Assembly (NCBI GenBank): GCA_965249715.1 | Contig: CBDFMP010000048.1 | Span: 69,713-133,712 of the forward strand | DNA: 64,000 nt | Direction of reading: 5' to 3' | Source of the DNA: Spirochaetota bacterium | GTDB lineage: Bacteria; Spirochaetota; UBA12135; COTS27 | In this document: positions 45,543-52,115 of the stretch, in pieces | Layout of the letters: every line of letters starts with the position of its first letter | Position numbering within the stretch: the first letter of the stretch is position 1 | Translations under genes and position numbers: made by a program | The notes under the pieces: model-generated | Database searches by the model: none | Seen by the model: only the letters and a program-made list of their open reading frames with translations | Told to the model about the DNA's origin: nothing

Positions 45543-46770
45543 TTATTGGTGGCGAGCGAGTGTATTGTAAATGGTGTTGAATTCATTTTCATCGCTTAAA
45601 AGTTCAAGCGCACGTTCAATGAATGGCATCACAACTGGTTCTTGCGGTTGCACTAGTAGGTTAGCTATTGATATTTCCTCATCGGGTGGAATGCCCTCAC
45701 GGAGATACTGCACTTCGCCGTCACCGTTTACATTGCCGGGATAGCTGGTACGTGAAGAAGTAACGGTGACCAGCCAACCATTAGCCAGATCACGTGCTAA
45801 GATCCCGCCCGCACAGCCTAAGGTGTCCCTGCCAATGTGAATAAGCTGCGCACGTTGCCGCATAGCCAATGAGAACATTTCAGCGCCGCTGCAAGTATCG
45901 TGGTCCGTGATGAGAATAAGCGGTCCCGTGCGGTAATGGTGTGTGCCCTCGGGAACTATGGTCAGGGTGTTTGTAACGAATGTCCTTATCCCGGTGCGTT
46001 CATTTTCAATCAGATAAGGACGCGCTTGATCAATAAATCGTGCTGCAAGAAAACGCGCATTGTCCTGTGATCCACCTGCAGCTGTGCGGATATCAACAAT
46101 CAGCCCCGTCATACCGGCAGCATTAAAACGTTTGAGTGTGTCTTCAATACGTATGAAATACGCGCGTGCGCCTGCCAATCTGCTGGAACCCTCAAATCCT
46201 ACAACAAGCGCGTCAATTAAAATATAACCAATGACGTGAGTTAATGATCCCGTATAAATACCAGCATCCCGCAATGCCTGCAGCTCGATGATACCGCTGG
46301 GAAAGATGTCTTGTGTACTGGTATTGGTGAGATAAGTGCTTGTTGCCAACCAGGTGATTTTGTTTTTATAAATCGTCTTCTTGAAAATCGAACTGTTCTG
46401 TGACGCACCCATACAAATAAACATCCGTAGGAAATTCAAAATAAACATGGGGATCATCCAGCTGATGTTCAACGTCATTGAGAACGCTTGCGAATTCACA
46501 ATCGCTCATCCCATCGTACACACTAGCTGCAAACATGTCACGCAAACCATTGATGCTGCCGCCGTTAGCACTTGGGATTTGATCATGATAGGCATAAACC
46601 ATGCGCAAGTCTTCAAAGAATAAATTATAGGTTTCCGTATGACTGGCAAATTGTGTATTTAAAATAAGTCCGCACCCGCTGAGCAGCAGACTCCCCAAGC
46701 TGAGCATTATCAGCCCCAACACGCGTAAGGGTTTAGCAGAAGCTTTTGCATGAAGCATGGGCGTTATCAT
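45543..46770 (-). pseudogene. S41-family peptidase lipoprotein split across two overlapping frames
   Basis: The N-terminal ORF (46366-46770) has lipobox LLLSGC. The C-terminal ORF (45543-46499) has the S41-like motif GLIVDIRTAAGGS. The frames overlap at 46366-46499. Confidence 0.6.
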
Positions 46771-46798
46771 GGTTTAATTTTACCCTGAAGCTTAACTT

Positions 46799-47704
46799 TT
46801 ACCAATAAATGGCAATGCCCACATTCAGTTTTTGCGTAAACGTCAGTTTGTTTTTGGGCACAGGTTCCACAAAATACTCCAATGCTACAGCGTACTGGGT
46901 GTGCAAGGCCATGGTGGGGGTAAAAAACCACTCGTACGTGACGGCAGCTGTGGTGCGCACCGTATTACCCCAATGATAAAGTGCGGTCGTTTCTAACAAA
47001 GTATTGATCAGCACATCCACAAGTCCATTGCTATTTTCTAATACTTGTTCTAAATGGAAATTGTAAACGTTAAAACGCGGGCGTGCCACAGCACCGATAA
47101 CGGGAAGATAATAATGGATGCGCAAATGATGTTTTTTTAAAGCAAAATTCACCATCAGTGCCGGGCCAATGGTCATGGTGGCACTCCAGCCATAACTGAG
47201 AAAATTCTGAATCAACCAAAAGTCTAGATTGCCTTCAACCATAAACCCAAGGTAAAGTGTTGCTACTTTTGTTCGCAATACGCTAAATGCTGAACTATAG
47301 GCTAGATTGACGAGGATATCCAAGTCAGCGCCTGATTGGGTAACGGGCCCATTGTCACCTGTGGCGTAGTTGACTAAGAGCGCTCCCGCGCCTGCTGTCA
47401 TTTGCACATAATGATAATGCTGCGGAGCAATATGCTCATACCCCAGGTGGAGATTGCCGCCAAGTCCCAGACGATAAAGCGAAGAAACGACGAGATCACG
47501 ACCATCGTTTAAAAATATTCCACCAGCAATGGTAAAAACATTACGCCGCGCCTCAGTCTCAGTGTCCGTGTCCAATGCCGGTTCAGCTGCGGGTGCCTCA
47601 GCTGGCGGTGCTGTTATTTCCTGTGCTAATAGCTTGGCTGGTTCATGTAACCAGCTGCTGACTAAGTAGCTGCCAGCGATGAGCAAGATGTAAAGTATTC
47701 TCAT
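46799..47704 (-). CDS. Putative outer-membrane beta-barrel protein (paralogue family, member 1)
   Basis: 301 aa. Signal peptide MRILYILLIAGSYLVSS, amphipathic strand pattern and aromatic C-terminus ..VGIAIYW. Shares blocks with 49414-50211 (KHHLRIHYYLPVIG/KHTLELNWYVPLVG; WGNTVRTT/WGNSFRTT). Confidence 0.6.
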   Translation of the reverse strand: MRILYILLIAGSYLVSSWLHEPAKLLAQEITAPPAEAPAAEPALDTDTETEARRNVFTIAGGIFLNDGRDLVVSSLYRLGLGGNLHLGYEHIAPQHYHYVQMTAGAGALLVNYATGDNGPVTQSGADLDILVNLAYSSAFSVLRTKVATLYLGFMVEGNLDFWLIQNFLSYGWSATMTIGPALMVNFALKKHHLRIHYYLPVIGAVARPRFNVYNFHLEQVLENSNGLVDVLINTLLETTALYHWGNTVRTTAAVTYEWFFTPTMALHTQYAVALEYFVEPVPKNKLTFTQKLNVGIAIYW

Positions 47705-47724
47705 CCCTTTAATTTCTCATCCCT

Positions 47725-48179
47725 TTAATAAATGGCAATACCAAGACCGACCTGATGGACATAGTCTGTTTGTGTATTGGCGGTTAATTTCGGATAATAA
47801 GCTACTTTCAAGATAATTCGCGTATTCTGAATCATATTTTGGACGGCTCAGTACCTTCGCTTTCGTTTGCCGAAAGTGGTAACAGTAATAGGACGCTGCT
47901 GATAATAATAAGAGCTGTTGTGAGTCTTAGGTTTTTGCTAAGTGACATGATTTTATCATCCATAAGCTTAAAAGATTAATGATAATAACTATTTTAACGG
48001 CATGGTCTATAATTATAAATTAAAGTAGCAAATTTGTTGCTTTATAATAGAGCTGTACAGGTTTTTTAGACTTTATTTAATATATTGCCGTTGAATACAT
48101 TCAGTTCGGGAGGTAATTTGAGTTTTGCCGGCGGTGATGCCTGCAGTCCTTGTAGCCAAGCTGCCAGCAGCGGCACTTT
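47725..48179 (-). pseudogene. Internally deleted duplicate of the OMP-2 gene plus its upstream spacer and the neuB 3' end
   Basis: 47725-47948 aligns with the 3' and 5' ends of 49414-50211 (start cat at 47946-47948; stop after ~38 codons). 47950-48145 aligns with 50212-50405. 48146-48179 aligns with an internal neuB piece (~50944-50985). Confidence 0.75.
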
Positions 48180-49413
48180 GACAATGCCGCGGAGCAATAT
48201 GCTCATGCCCTAAGCGGAGCTTGCCATCAAGTCCTAGACGATAAAACAAAGAAACGACGAGCTCACGACTATCGTTTAAAAACATTCCACCAGCAATGGT
48301 AATGGTAAAAACATTGCGCTGCGCCCTCAGTGTCCGTGTCCAAGGCAGGCTCAGCTGTGGGTGCCCTCAGCAAGCGGTGCTGTTATTTCCTGTGTTAATA
48401 GCTTAGCTTGGCTGGTTCATGTAACCAGCCGCCAGCAGCGGCACTTTGACAATGCCGCGGAGCAATGTGCTCATGCCCTAAGCGGAGCTTGCCATCTAGT
48501 CCTAGACAATAAAACAAAGAAACGACGAGCTCACGACCATCATTTAAAAACATTCCACCAGCAATGGTAATGGTAAAAACATTGCGCTGCGCCCTCAGTG
48601 TCCGTGTCCAAGGCAGGCTCAGCTGTGGGTGCCCTCAGCAAAGCGGTGCTGTTATTTCCTGTGCTAATAGCTTGGCTGGTTTCATGTAACCAGCAGCTAC
48701 CAGCGCACTTTGACAATGCCGCGGAGCAATGTGCTCATGCCCTAAGCGGAGCTTGCCATCTAGTCCTAGACGATAAAACAAAGAAACGACGAGCTCACGA
48801 ATAAAAGGCAATGGTAATGGTAAAAAAGCCCTCAGTGTCCGTGTCCAAGGCAGGCTCAGCTGTGGGTGCCATCAGCAAGCGGTGCTGTTATTTCCGAGCT
48901 TGGCTGGTTTCATGTAAGCAGCTGCCAGCGATTTAAAATACACCCCTCTAATAAAAGGCAAGCCGCCAGTAGCGGCACTTTGACAATGCCGCGGAGCAAT
49001 GTGCTCATACCCTAAGCGGAGCTTGCCACCTAGTCCTAGACGATAAAACAAAGAAACGACGAGCTCACGACCATCATTCCACCAGCAATGGTAATGGTAA
49101 AAACATTGCGCTGCGCCCTCAGTGTCCGTGTCCAAGGCAGGCTCAGCTGTGGGTGCCCTCAGCAAGCGGTGCTGTTATTTCCTGTGCTAATAGCTTGGCT
49201 GGTTTCATGTAAGCAGCTGCCAGCGATGAGCAAGATGTAAAATATTCTCATCCCTCTAATAAAAGGCAAGCCGCCAGCAGCGGCAGCAAGCGGTGCTGTT
49301 ATTTCCTGTGTTAATAGCTTGGCTGGTTCATGTAAGCTTGGCTGGTTCATGTAAGCAGCTGCCAGCGATGAGCAAGATGTAAAATATTCTCACCCCTTTA
49401 ATTTCTCATCCCT
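48163..49413 (-). repeat. About 5 degenerate tandem copies (~240-290 bp) of the 5' end (first ~90 codons) of OMP-1, some including its start region and the OMP-2 stop junction
   Basis: Recurring blocks gccagcagcggcactttgacaatgccgcggagcaat..ctcagtgtccgtgtccaaggcaggctcagctgtggg..ggctggttcatgtaa are homologous to 47415-47704. Units start near 48163, 48431, 48695 and 48962, and at least one further unit begins in the rearranged stretch after ~49230. Confidence 0.8.
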
Positions 49414-50211
49414 CTAATAAAAGGCAATGCCAAGACCGACCTGATGGACATAGTCTGTTTGTGTATTGGCGGTTAATTCCGGATAATAATCTAATGAGAC
49501 GCCATAATGGCAAACAAAGCCTATAGACGGAAGTACTCCAATGCGGTAGGTTAAATTTATGGTAGTGCGAAAACTATTTCCCCATGAGCGCAGCCCCAGC
49601 TCCACTGGTTCTGTCTCGGCGTTCAGTGAACTGATGCCTACGAGCGGTACATACCAATTGAGCTCCAATGTATGTTTTCCGATAATGAATTCACCGATGA
49701 TGGCTGCGCCTAAGGTAGTTGTGGAAAAGGTATCGTAGCGATAAAGAATAGCGTCGCTCAGCAAAGTTGTATTATTTTCAATCGTAAAACCTAGATATAG
49801 ATTGAGAACTTTCAGTGGGAGGAGATTATAGCTTAGGTTGAAGGTGCCATTGATCAAACCGCGCAATGTTTCGTCGGGAGCATTGGGGGTGAACTCATGC
49901 CAAAATATTTCCACCCGCCCAAAGCCACGGACGCGATTTTTGATAAAATCCAATTGCACCCGTCCGCCGTAAACATAATAGTATGTGATCTCGGGCACTT
50001 CTATTTCTTCAAGATAATTCGCGTACTCTGAACTGTATCCAGGCACATCTACATTGTAAAACATGACGCTGGGAAGGATTGTGAAGATAAATTTTGTTTT
50101 TTTGGACGGCTCAGTACCTTCGCTTTCGTGTGCTGTTAGTGGTAGTAGCAATAGAGCGCTGCTGACAATAACAAGAGCTGTTATTATTCTTAGGTTTTTG
50201 ATAAGTGACAT
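49414..50211 (-). CDS. Putative outer-membrane beta-barrel protein (paralogue family, member 2)
   Basis: 265 aa. Signal peptide ..ALVIVSSALLLLPLTAHE and C-terminus ..VGLGIAFY. Paralogous to 46799-47704. Confidence 0.6.
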   Translation of the reverse strand: MSLIKNLRIITALVIVSSALLLLPLTAHESEGTEPSKKTKFIFTILPSVMFYNVDVPGYSSEYANYLEEIEVPEITYYYVYGGRVQLDFIKNRVRGFGRVEIFWHEFTPNAPDETLRGLINGTFNLSYNLLPLKVLNLYLGFTIENNTTLLSDAILYRYDTFSTTTLGAAIIGEFIIGKHTLELNWYVPLVGISSLNAETEPVELGLRSWGNSFRTTINLTYRIGVLPSIGFVCHYGVSLDYYPELTANTQTDYVHQVGLGIAFY

Positions 50212-50328
50212 AACTTTTTCCTCGCTAAGCTTAAAATATTGATAATAATAGTTGTCTCAACTGTATTACCTATATTATAAATTAAAATAGTAAATTTATT
50301 GCTTTTATAATAGAGCTGTACAGTTTTT

Positions 50329-51666
50329 TCAGACTTTATTTAATGGTTTGCCGTTAAAGGCATTCAGTTCGGGAGGTACATTGAGTTTTGCGGCGGTGAT
50401 GCCTGCCCCGCTGGTTATGCTCTTTGCACTCATGAGTTGTTCTCTGCCCTTGCCAGTGGAGTGGCGCAGCACCTCTTCCCAGTCCGGTGGCAGACCTGCT
50501 TCATTGCCCTGCTCGGCGCGCAAATAGGCGCTATTGGCGTGGCTAAGCGGCGTTCCCGCGGCAATAGGCGCAGTGGCAATGAGGGAACGTTTGCTGGTAT
50601 GATAATAAGGTTTTTCGCATGCTGCCAGGGTTTTCACACCATCACCCAGTGTGGCACTCAGCTCTTCGCTGCTGTAAAACGCACTTAGTGTTTTACCAAG
50701 CAGGCTGAGCAGCTGTGTTTTGAGCGCGCGCGGATTGATCAATTTTTCGCTCAGTGCCTGTGTACAGGCACGCATGACGGGAGCTGCGGCGTTTTTGTTG
50801 GCTCCCCGTACTGTAATAAGCTCTTGCATGGTTTGGCTGAGCGCCGTGCTCAGCTCGGCAAATTCCTGCGGGATGAGCGCAACACTGTCATCGAGGCCAG
50901 CTCCGCTGCGGCTAAGCGTGAGGTGTTTTTCAAGGATAAGCGGCCTGCCTGCAAGGCCTTGCAGCCAAGCTGCCAGCAGCGGCACTTTCAAGGGATGTGG
51001 AGTGTGATCGGAGAGACCTGTGAGCATTCCTGTTGTGCGTGCAAGTGTGAGCAATGTGAGCAGGTTGTAATCGCTGGGGCGGCTGGGATAACAGGTCACA
51101 CACTGCATGAGGGCAATGCTGGCACTGAGCTTGTCAAGCGACTGCTGCTTTTGCACCGCATTTGTTTTAAGAAAACGCATGAATGCTTGGATATCGGCTG
51201 AGCGGCTCATGCCGATGGAACAGAAAACAGGAAGCTGCGTTTTTAGTACTGCACGCCAGAGGTCGTAATAGGTTAGCTCGGGGGATGCTATTTTATGCGC
51301 GGCAACGCCTAGCTCAGTGAGCAGCTGCAAACTGCGGCTGCCAAAGCAGGAAGCGAAAAACAGGATATTAGAGGCGGCTGCACTTTGTTTGAGTGCCATA
51401 AAGAATTCCCGCTCACGTTCCAATGTTTTAAACTTTTGGTACAGCTGGACGCGTTTGCCCCCCAGTCTGAGTGTACCGCTTTCAGGATGAAGAATTTCAT
51501 CAGCGAAGACAACTTGAAATTTGACGGCGTTTGCACCGGCACTTGCCGCTGCATGGATAAGTTCCTTGGCATGCTGCAGGCTGCCTGCATGTGCGGTGCC
51601 GGCCTCAGCAATGAGGAAAACATTATGCCGACTGTGCCGGGCAAGAAATGTCTGCATGACGCCCAT
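50329..51666 (-). CDS. NeuB-family sialic-acid-type (N-acetylneuraminate/pseudaminate-like) synthase, long form
   Basis: 445 aa. FLIAEAGTAHAGSLQHAKELIHAAASAGANAVKFQ and ..AHKIASPELT.. are typical of NeuB. The C-terminal region is SAF-like. No neuA/neuC lies nearby. Confidence 0.7.
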   Translation of the reverse strand: MGVMQTFLARHSRHNVFLIAEAGTAHAGSLQHAKELIHAAASAGANAVKFQVVFADEILHPESGTLRLGGKRVQLYQKFKTLEREREFFMALKQSAAASNILFFASCFGSRSLQLLTELGVAAHKIASPELTYYDLWRAVLKTQLPVFCSIGMSRSADIQAFMRFLKTNAVQKQQSLDKLSASIALMQCVTCYPSRPSDYNLLTLLTLARTTGMLTGLSDHTPHPLKVPLLAAWLQGLAGRPLILEKHLTLSRSGAGLDDSVALIPQEFAELSTALSQTMQELITVRGANKNAAAPVMRACTQALSEKLINPRALKTQLLSLLGKTLSAFYSSEELSATLGDGVKTLAACEKPYYHTSKRSLIATAPIAAGTPLSHANSAYLRAEQGNEAGLPPDWEEVLRHSTGKGREQLMSAKSITSGAGITAAKLNVPPELNAFNGKPLNKV

Positions 51667-51705
51667 AACACAATGGACAATGGGGCTGCGAATTTATGTG
51701 GATGG

Positions 51706-52115
51706 CTAACGCGTCAGCAGCACTGCAGCTGCCAGCGCAGCCCAGGCGGCTACAAATGCCAGCCCGCCAATGGGAGCAATCATTCCCAGCCACTGCCAGT
51801 TGCTGAGTGCCAGAAAATACAAACTGCCTGAGAAGAAGAGGATGCCAAGACCAAAGCCCCATGCCGCGCCAAGCAGCCAAGTGCTATTTAGCGAGCTGTC
51901 TTTCATGAGAATACCGGTAGCCAGCAATGCCAGACTATGAAAAAAGTGATAGTGGTTTGCCGTTGTGAATGTTGGCGCGCGGTCATCACCGGGAGCGGCG
52001 CAGTGAGAATGGGCGCCAGGGCATGCGCACCAAATGCGCCGATGAGCACGGCTAAACCTCCCAAGCTACTGGCGCTTAGCAGGACTAGCTGCGCTAAGTG
52101 TTTCACGTCTGGCAT
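51706..52115 (-). pseudogene. DUF423-family small membrane protein split by a frameshift
   Basis: The N-terminal part from ATG 52115 reads ..GGLAVLIGAFGAHAL... The conserved continuation FTTANHYHFFHSLALLATGIL.. is in another frame around 51940-51990. The C-terminal part is 51706-51927 (..FFSGSLYFLAL..IAPIGGLAFV). Confidence 0.6.

Follow-up and report, generated by a model that had tools for sequence, protein, structure and literature searches.

The patchwork described here (positions 47705-49413) lies within a stretch of 64,000 nucleotides, hereafter referred to as the window, and is flanked by two intact minus-strand genes, OMP-1 and OMP-2 (Table 1). These genes had been regarded as paralogues in an earlier note made from the nucleotide sequence alone, and their products indeed share 27% identity over 170 aa (E 3e-18). 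A third paralogue, OMP-3, is located outside the window (C48:140019-140945), and the terminal residue is aromatic in all three proteins. Upstream of OMP-2 lies a gene for a NeuB-family synthase (neuB), whose matches to NCBIfam fall below cut-off. The neighbours in the window comprise copA, an S41 peptidase gene, neuB, DUF423 and sdhBA, and scans of the window for Rfam families and tRNAs came back empty. The assembly is a MAG of 49 contigs and 2.42 Mb, which is 85% complete. Repeat finding, TRF and BLAST (E down to 1e-111) located every piece of the patchwork where the earlier note had placed it, and BLAST against the 2.42-Mb assembly returned local matches only, that is, no copies of the patch elsewhere.

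Table 1. Genes and repeat-derived pieces at the OMP-1/OMP-2 locus, in window coordinates (nt, nucleotide positions relative to the OMP-1 start).
Feature	Position	Strand	Source, evidence and remarks
OMP-1	46799-47704	-	Intact ORF, 301 aa; predicted outer-membrane beta-barrel
Last 25 OMP-2 codons, stop/start junction and OMP-1 start	47800-47691	-	Source 49489-49380; 94.5% over 110 nt
Perfect 16-bp x2 tandem of OMP-1 SD and ATG	47698-47729	-	Creates mini-uORF MRN*; TRF, sequence
Inner OMP-2 scrap, 25 nt (SEYANYLE)	47831-47807	-	Source 50032-50008; 24/25 bases
neuB 3' end, spacer and OMP-2 codons 1-37	48144-47837	-	Source 50406-50100; 84% identity, E 1e-52
part: OMP-2 codons 1-37	47837-47948	-	
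part: neuB/OMP-2 spacer	47949-48065	-	
part: neuB 3' end	48066-48144	-	
Scrap from the middle of neuB	48179-48148	-	Source 50988-50957; 31/32 bases; fused to OMP-1 nt 293
U4, short type, OMP-1 nt 47-293	48432-48179	-	Carries the full 32-35-nt neuB scrap
U3, short type, OMP-1 nt 46-293	48698-48447	-	Ends in 20-nt neuB-scrap remnant
U2, long type, with OMP-2-stop junction	48711-48965	-	OMP-1 fragment at about 48940-48711; ATG changed to GTG; three internal deletions
U1, long type, with OMP-2-stop junction	48981-49275	-	OMP-1 nt -8 to 293 at 49260-48981
U0, OMP-1 nt -34 to 100	49428-49290	-	GTG start; 19-bp internal tandem
OMP-2	49414-50211	-	Intact ORF, 265 aa; paralogue of OMP-1
NeuB-family synthase gene (neuB)	50329-51666	-	Pfam PF03102, E 1e-45; source of both neuB pieces

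Degenerate copies of the 5' part of OMP-1, about five of which had been counted previously, were found as units U0-U4 at 49428-48179 of the minus strand, and TRF describes the array that they form by a period of 268, 4.1 copies and a score of 1236. U0 follows directly after the real OMP-2 stop and is truncated onto scrap at 49289-49270. Every full unit (U1-U4) ends at OMP-1 nt 293, where it is fused to AAAGTGCCGCTGCTGGC, corresponding to neuB from 50988 onward; U1-U3 carry ~20 nt of this neuB scrap, whereas in U4 the scrap is complete, and the neuB 3' end comes next. The OMP-2-stop junction motif recurs in the copies, as had been noticed: it is provided by the real OMP-2 stop in U0 and, ahead of U1, by a copied stretch with the final 10 nt of OMP-2 plus junction, and it is degenerate in U2. 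ORF-like stretches are present in the fragments as well. U1 has SD and ATG together with a 10-nt deletion, and its coding capacity is limited to a 30-aa peptide. As compared to OMP-1, the units U1-U4 have in common a G insertion (+1), which brings a TGA into frame, a 5-nt deletion and a 6-nt insertion, and each of them additionally contains private, frame-breaking indels. Substitutions are scattered and amount to 10-14% between the units and OMP-1 and to 1.7-7% among the units. Because U1-U4 share these changes and are closer to each other than to OMP-1, the founder fragment was a diverged pseudogene piece already before its amplification.

The earlier note had further described an internally deleted copy of OMP-2 with its upstream spacer and the neuB 3' end as well as a scrap from the middle of neuB, and all of these pieces could be traced to their sources (Table 1). 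Differences from the source number 9/78 in the neuB end, 23/116 in the spacer and 15/112 in the OMP-2 codons. The OMP-2 remnant provides a 43-codon ORF and then runs out of frame. A 25-nt scrap from within OMP-2, which had been overlooked before, is found between the two larger OMP-2 pieces. The 16-bp tandem duplication at the OMP-1 start is also present at the OMP-2/U0 junction (49387-49418), and its occurrence at both sites indicates that it predates the large duplication. The block comprising the OMP-2 3' end and the junction is less diverged (6/110) than the remaining duplicated segment (47/306; Fisher p = 0.007), so the duplicated part is not necessarily inert throughout. The similarity of the junction block could mean that the OMP-1 leader is under constraint or that gene conversion took place later.

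In our estimation, the patchwork is with a probability of roughly 85% non-functional debris in decay, left by a single tandem duplication that spanned the neuB/OMP-2/OMP-1 junction and was amplified in part at a later time. As the full OMP-1 fragments all end at nt 293 on the same neuB scrap, a single tandem duplication of ~1.9 kb explains the layout. Starting from a presumed ancestral order of neuB, a 117-nt spacer, OMP-2, a 20-nt junction, OMP-1 and the S41 peptidase gene, this duplication reached from neuB position 50988 to OMP-1 nt 293, as shown by the common join point. Its product was neuB - OMP-2 - (OMP-1 nt 1-293) / (neuB 50988 to 3' end - spacer' - OMP-2' - junction') - intact OMP-1. 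Subsequently, the downstream copy shed ~1.1 kb via three deletions (source 50956-50407, 50099-50033 and 50007-49490), the first of which, in neuB, has the 7-nt microhomology GCCTGC(A/C). Of this copy, a scrap and the 3' end of neuB remained, along with the spacer and a stump of OMP-2'. The upstream OMP-1 fragment, by then ~10% diverged and carrying the +1, -5 and +6 indels, was re-amplified along with the initial 20 nt of the scrap, whereby two new join points gave rise to U1 and U2 as long units (~308 bp) and to U3 and U4 as short ones (268 bp). These secondary join points connect the scrap to OMP-1 nt 46 at the microhomology GCAGCT and to the last 10 nt of OMP-2 at TTG, respectively. Following amplification, the units decayed separately. 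As a consequence of these events, OMP-1 would have come to lie at its present distance of 1.7 kb from OMP-2, and it is probably transcribed from the duplicated spacer/OMP-2' leader rather than from the OMP-2 promoter. The proposal that the region is a record of repeated failed duplications is thus supported in a refined form, namely one junction-spanning duplication followed by deletions and a secondary amplification, in a genome with ~200 such arrays.

Bacterial duplication-amplification, as known from Salmonella and E. coli genetics, involves duplication at a microhomology join point and subsequent RecA-dependent unequal exchange. The present locus resembles these cases in its single join point (OMP-1 nt 293/neuB 50988), its head-to-tail units, its secondary join points and the microhomologies of 3-8 nt at join and deletion points. 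We infer that sequences at this locus may have been joined illegitimately or by strand slippage at microhomologies and then subjected to RecA-dependent unequal exchange, and the same process may have filled 9.5% of the genome with arrays. Classical bacterial amplifications are unstable and become lost without selection, whereas the copies described here persisted to 2-16% divergence and decay.

An AlphaFold model of OMP-1, based on a five-sequence alignment, reached a mean pLDDT of 72 and a pTM of 0.66. It predicts an N-terminal/signal helix (residues 2-28), disorder up to residue ~53 and then 10-12 strands; the pLDDT of the linker is below 50, and strands beta1 and beta2 are modelled at residues 54-70 and 76-92 with a 5-residue turn in between. 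When this model was used in Foldseek, the best PDB matches were the barrels of OmpT, Pla and OpcA (E 1e-8 to 1e-5), and OMP-1 terminates with ...IAIYW. On account of the barrel model, these matches and the aromatic C-terminal residues, the label 'OMP' is reasonable for this predicted protein, in keeping with its earlier designation as a beta-barrel candidate. Both termini of such barrels usually face the periplasm, and the topology assumed for OMP-1 follows this rule. Searches of Pfam and NCBIfam assigned no family to OMP-1, OMP-2 or ten relatives. A profile search with OMP-1 retrieved 103 representatives among 1.8 billion proteins, a word-based homologue search returned the window's own protein as sole match, and the 36-nt unit motif had no match in metagenome contigs.

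The closest genome, which belongs to the same GTDB genus, is that of the starfish symbiont 'Spirochaetes bacterium COTS27' (AP019861), in which the gene order is gyrB, OMP-1 homologue, S41 peptidase gene, rsmD and copA. The homologue has 404 aa, is 42% identical over residues 49-301 and contains a long low-complexity N-terminal linker; a search for related loci from a two-sequence alignment retrieved COTS27 only. A genome of the same family (G002) has the order gyrB-OMP-1-S41 peptidase with a 17-nt gap, and in one of the same taxonomic order (G003), OMP-1-S41 peptidase is preceded by a different gene. OMP-2, neuB and the array are absent from the OMP-1 locus in COTS27, G002 and G003. Since the pairing with the S41 peptidase gene recurs in all three genomes, OMP-1 is, judging from gene order, a conserved single-copy orthologue paired with this gene. 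In the genome of the window, the gene next after gyrB is OMP-3, which is 22% identical to the COTS27 protein, and the region upstream of OMP-1 is thus a lineage-specific rearrangement zone.

Read evidence was drawn from Logan contigs of four runs of one sample. These contigs reproduce the diagnostic junctions 47614-47770 and 47760-48177 at 99% or more, and the same holds true for the unit-specific pieces 48709-48761, 48841-48895, 48979-49031 and 49368-49459 (at least 99%). A 78-nt Logan contig, found in three runs at approximately single-copy depth, matches 49221-49285 and then continues with CTTTGACAATGCC, which is a full unit end; it represents a unit-end-to-U1-start junction. The assembly instead enters the truncated U0 end past 49285, and 13 of the 31-mers of the 78-nt contig are absent from the whole assembly. 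Conversely, Logan contigs of three runs do not contain the assembly junction 49285/49286. Either the assembly lost at least part of a unit at the U0/U1 boundary or the array is polymorphic, and the contigs fit both; in view of the extra junction in the reads, the number and order of units at this boundary are not secure. Together with a MAG that comes in 49 contigs and is 85% complete, the missing assembly junction and the variant junction with its 13 novel 31-mers might suggest that repeat-containing reads were joined wrongly over all or part of the array. However, private substitutions and indels as present in the units are not something that assemblers invent, the independently made Logan contigs confirm the key junctions and the unit-specific pieces, and the doubt is confined to how many units there are near U0/U1 and in what order. 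We therefore consider an assembly artefact hardly credible.

Several features of the region could also be taken to indicate a regulatory role. The duplicated spacer retains an AT-rich block that is better conserved than its surroundings, promoter-like hexamers are present in this spacer at 48019-47982 of the minus strand, and terminator-like hairpins followed by a T-run are found on the same strand at the unit junctions (49287-49270 and 48976-48962). Combined with the conserved junction block and the variant array junction in the reads, these features would suit a scenario in which the array together with the OMP-2' stump is a selected 5' region that shields OMP-1 from transcription coming from OMP-2 and provides it with its own promoter, while the copy number of the units tunes expression. 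However, the consensus scans are weak with 9/12 matches, and the copy, by the same weak scan, has kept a promoter-like site other than that found at 50260-50233 in the source spacer. Moreover, OMP-1 follows gyrB in COTS27 and G002 with no such region intervening, and a regulatory explanation is not needed, as ~200 similar arrays exist elsewhere in the genome. Such a function of the patchwork appears unlikely to us; for the part closest to OMP-1, the junction block and the AT-rich spacer block are weak signs that still permit a regulatory role.

The earlier note had alternatively raised the possibility of a reservoir for N-terminal variation, in which case the OMP-1 5' fragments would serve as donors that vary the N-terminal part of expressed OMP-1 by gene conversion. 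Antigenic variation by gene conversion is exemplified by vlsE, msp2, tprK and pilS. Like the silent-cassette loci of these systems (Borrelia vls, Anaplasma msp2, Treponema pallidum tprK and Neisseria pilS), the patchwork combines clustered, truncated and promoter-less surface-gene copies close to an expressed gene, and the spirochaete that carries it is likewise associated with a host. In addition, the fragments immediately precede a gene predicted to encode a surface beta-barrel, the start region is kept in U0 and U1, the junction block is unusually alike in both copies, the reads contain a variant array junction and recA is present. However, the units are only 1.7-7% apart and thus offer almost no diversity, with no variable segments between conserved ones, and their common +1 frameshift with in-frame TGA as well as their private indels mean that conversion across units would break OMP-1. 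They span OMP-1 residues 16-98, that is the signal peptide, the disordered linker with its pLDDT below 50 and strands beta1-beta2 on a 5-residue turn, and not the long, variable surface loops. Furthermore, OMP-1 is single-copy and free of an array in the relatives and does not belong to a variable family there, housekeeping genes across the genome, including mutS, are affected by arrays of this kind as well, and neither variants nor joints in OMP-1 nt 1-300, i.e. no expression-site heterogeneity, were detected in the Logan contigs of four runs, which have a depth of 3-8x and drop rare variants. Taken together, a donor role of the fragments is highly improbable. A related scenario, which we rate as very unlikely, is that the array actively expands and contracts in the symbiont population and that recombination of U0/U1 with the OMP-1 5' end provides phase variation of a surface barrel out of duplication debris; if so, OMP-1 would be switched off by an imported frameshift, or its signal peptide or leader would be changed. 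Neither a reverse transcriptase, nor a recombinase, nor an inverted repeat was found near the locus. A diversity-generating retroelement was rejected, given that a reverse transcriptase gene is missing among the neighbours and that the mismatches are of all kinds rather than adenine-specific, and so was phase variation by an invertible promoter, as 46700-51800 contains no inverted repeats of at least 25 nt. Clustered OMP gene fragments should not be equated with a variation system without checks of frame, diversity and genomic background.

Debris of a junction-spanning duplication also accords with what is seen in the remainder of the genome. TRF analysis of the whole assembly revealed 197 arrays with a period of at least 80 bp, which occupy 230,539 bp or 9.5% of the genome and have a median period of 296 bp, a median of 2.9 copies and a median match of 94%. 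In a 400-kb sample of the COTS27 genome, 29 arrays of period >= 80 bp account for 4.7%, and the array habit is thus shared across the genus. An explanation of the richness in arrays by loss of recA or mutS was rejected, as both genes are intact in the window's genome and in four relatives. Hence, ~10% of the genome of this marine spirochaete and ~5% of that of COTS27 consist of gene-end tandem arrays despite intact recA and mutS. This wider pattern is more interesting than the OMP locus, which by itself matters little, as one more, though unusually well-resolved, example of a junction-spanning tandem duplication in decay.

The locus is of an already known kind, that is the gene-fragment tandem array of the Ehrlichia ruminantium type: its units are arranged head-to-tail with one join point and derive from the flanking genes, and many arrays are present genome-wide. 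Ehrlichia ruminantium reportedly contains large tandem repeats and truncated, duplicated gene fragments. As in the genome studied here, the bacterium is host-associated and carries many head-to-tail arrays with units of 100-500 bp in non-coding gaps; the units originate from the ends of flanking genes, and the copies decay. The copy number varies in Ehrlichia ruminantium, whereas such variation is only hinted at here by one variant junction. By TRF, 201 repeats were found in Ehrlichia ruminantium, which make up 6.3% of 1.5 Mb (PMC3287509). The present case differs further in that it concerns another phylum, namely a marine spirochaete with the starfish symbiont COTS27 as a near relative, in that the OMP locus contains gene 5' fragments rather than 3' ends, and in its apparent two-stage history with a 1.9-kb duplication and subsequent amplification of 268-/308-bp units. 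The array-rich genomes of these spirochaetes thus look like an independent parallel to Ehrlichia ruminantium.

Among the 197 arrays, the one at the OMP locus has a typical period (268 bp) and, with a match of 74%, is one of the six most decayed. When overlaps with flanking ORFs were determined by a crude test that considers ORFs of >= 150 aa, 88 arrays were found to overlap a 3' end only, 8 a 5' end only and 25 both, whereas 28 are inside ORFs and 48 overlap none. By this crude measure, arrays at 5' ends are rare and the OMP locus is atypical for the genome in that respect. The scarcity of 5'-fragment arrays would fit selection against additional start-bearing fragments. An example of the 3' type is provided by the housekeeping gene mutS, downstream of which mutS 3' fragments form a similar array.

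The start of OMP-1 lies in a perfect tandem duplication of 16 bp (two copies) that comprises the Shine-Dalgarno (SD) sequence and the ATG codon, and from which a three-codon uORF arises; the same tandem occurs at two positions of the window (see table). In the congener COTS27 (AP019861), the OMP-1 orthologue at locus L020 has its own SD and ATG in an independent, likewise perfect 20-bp × 2 tandem, giving rise to a 10-codon uORF. Presence of such tandems in both genomes could reflect chance, given that the genomes are repeat-prone, or a recurrent means of tuning initiation. In the whole source assembly (GCA_965249715.1), 197 tandem arrays with a period of at least 80 bp make up 9.5% of the sequence. 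A crude ORF test of these 197 arrays shows 88 whose overlap with flanking long ORFs is confined to the 3' end, against 8 for which it is confined to the 5' end. The assembly encodes intact recA and mutS. Directly downstream of the latter, fragments of the mutS C-terminal domain with stop codons are contained in a 296-bp array.

Coordinates of the features discussed
Feature	Sequence	Position
16-bp × 2 tandem	window	47698-47729; 49387-49418
20-bp × 2 tandem	L020	8149-8188
mutS C-terminal fragments	contig C19	9281-10013
296-bp array	contig C19	9522-10362
gyrB and third OMP paralogue	contig C48	139155-140945
254-bp × 2.7 array	contig C48	140921-141835
78-nt Logan contig	window	49221-49285 (matching part)
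AT-rich spacer block	window	50280-50330; 48010-48065
S41 peptidase gene	window	45543-46770

Within the fragment array, a 78-nt Logan contig found in three runs fuses the start region of U1, the second OMP-1 fragment unit after the OMP-2 stop, to the complete end of a unit (…GCGGCA|CTTTGACAATGCC), and 13 of its 31-mers are missing from the whole assembly. The assembly's own junction at 49285/49286 was looked for in the Logan contigs and not found.

On contig C48, beyond the limits of the window, the gene that comes next after gyrB encodes a third OMP paralogue (308 aa), and the 254-bp × 2.7 array starts at its 3' end. In relatives, the OMP-1 orthologue follows gyrB; the locus was therefore split or inverted in the lineage of the source genome. 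Downstream of OMP-1, the S41 peptidase lipoprotein gene occupies two overlapping frames. It is unbroken in three relatives (356-416 aa); for the split copy the alternatives are a pseudogene and an indel error.

Directly 3' of the neuB stop, both copies of the neuB/OMP-2 spacer carry a well conserved AT-rich block, which opens with the palindrome CTGTACAG; the 25 nt following it are nearly unrelated between the two copies.
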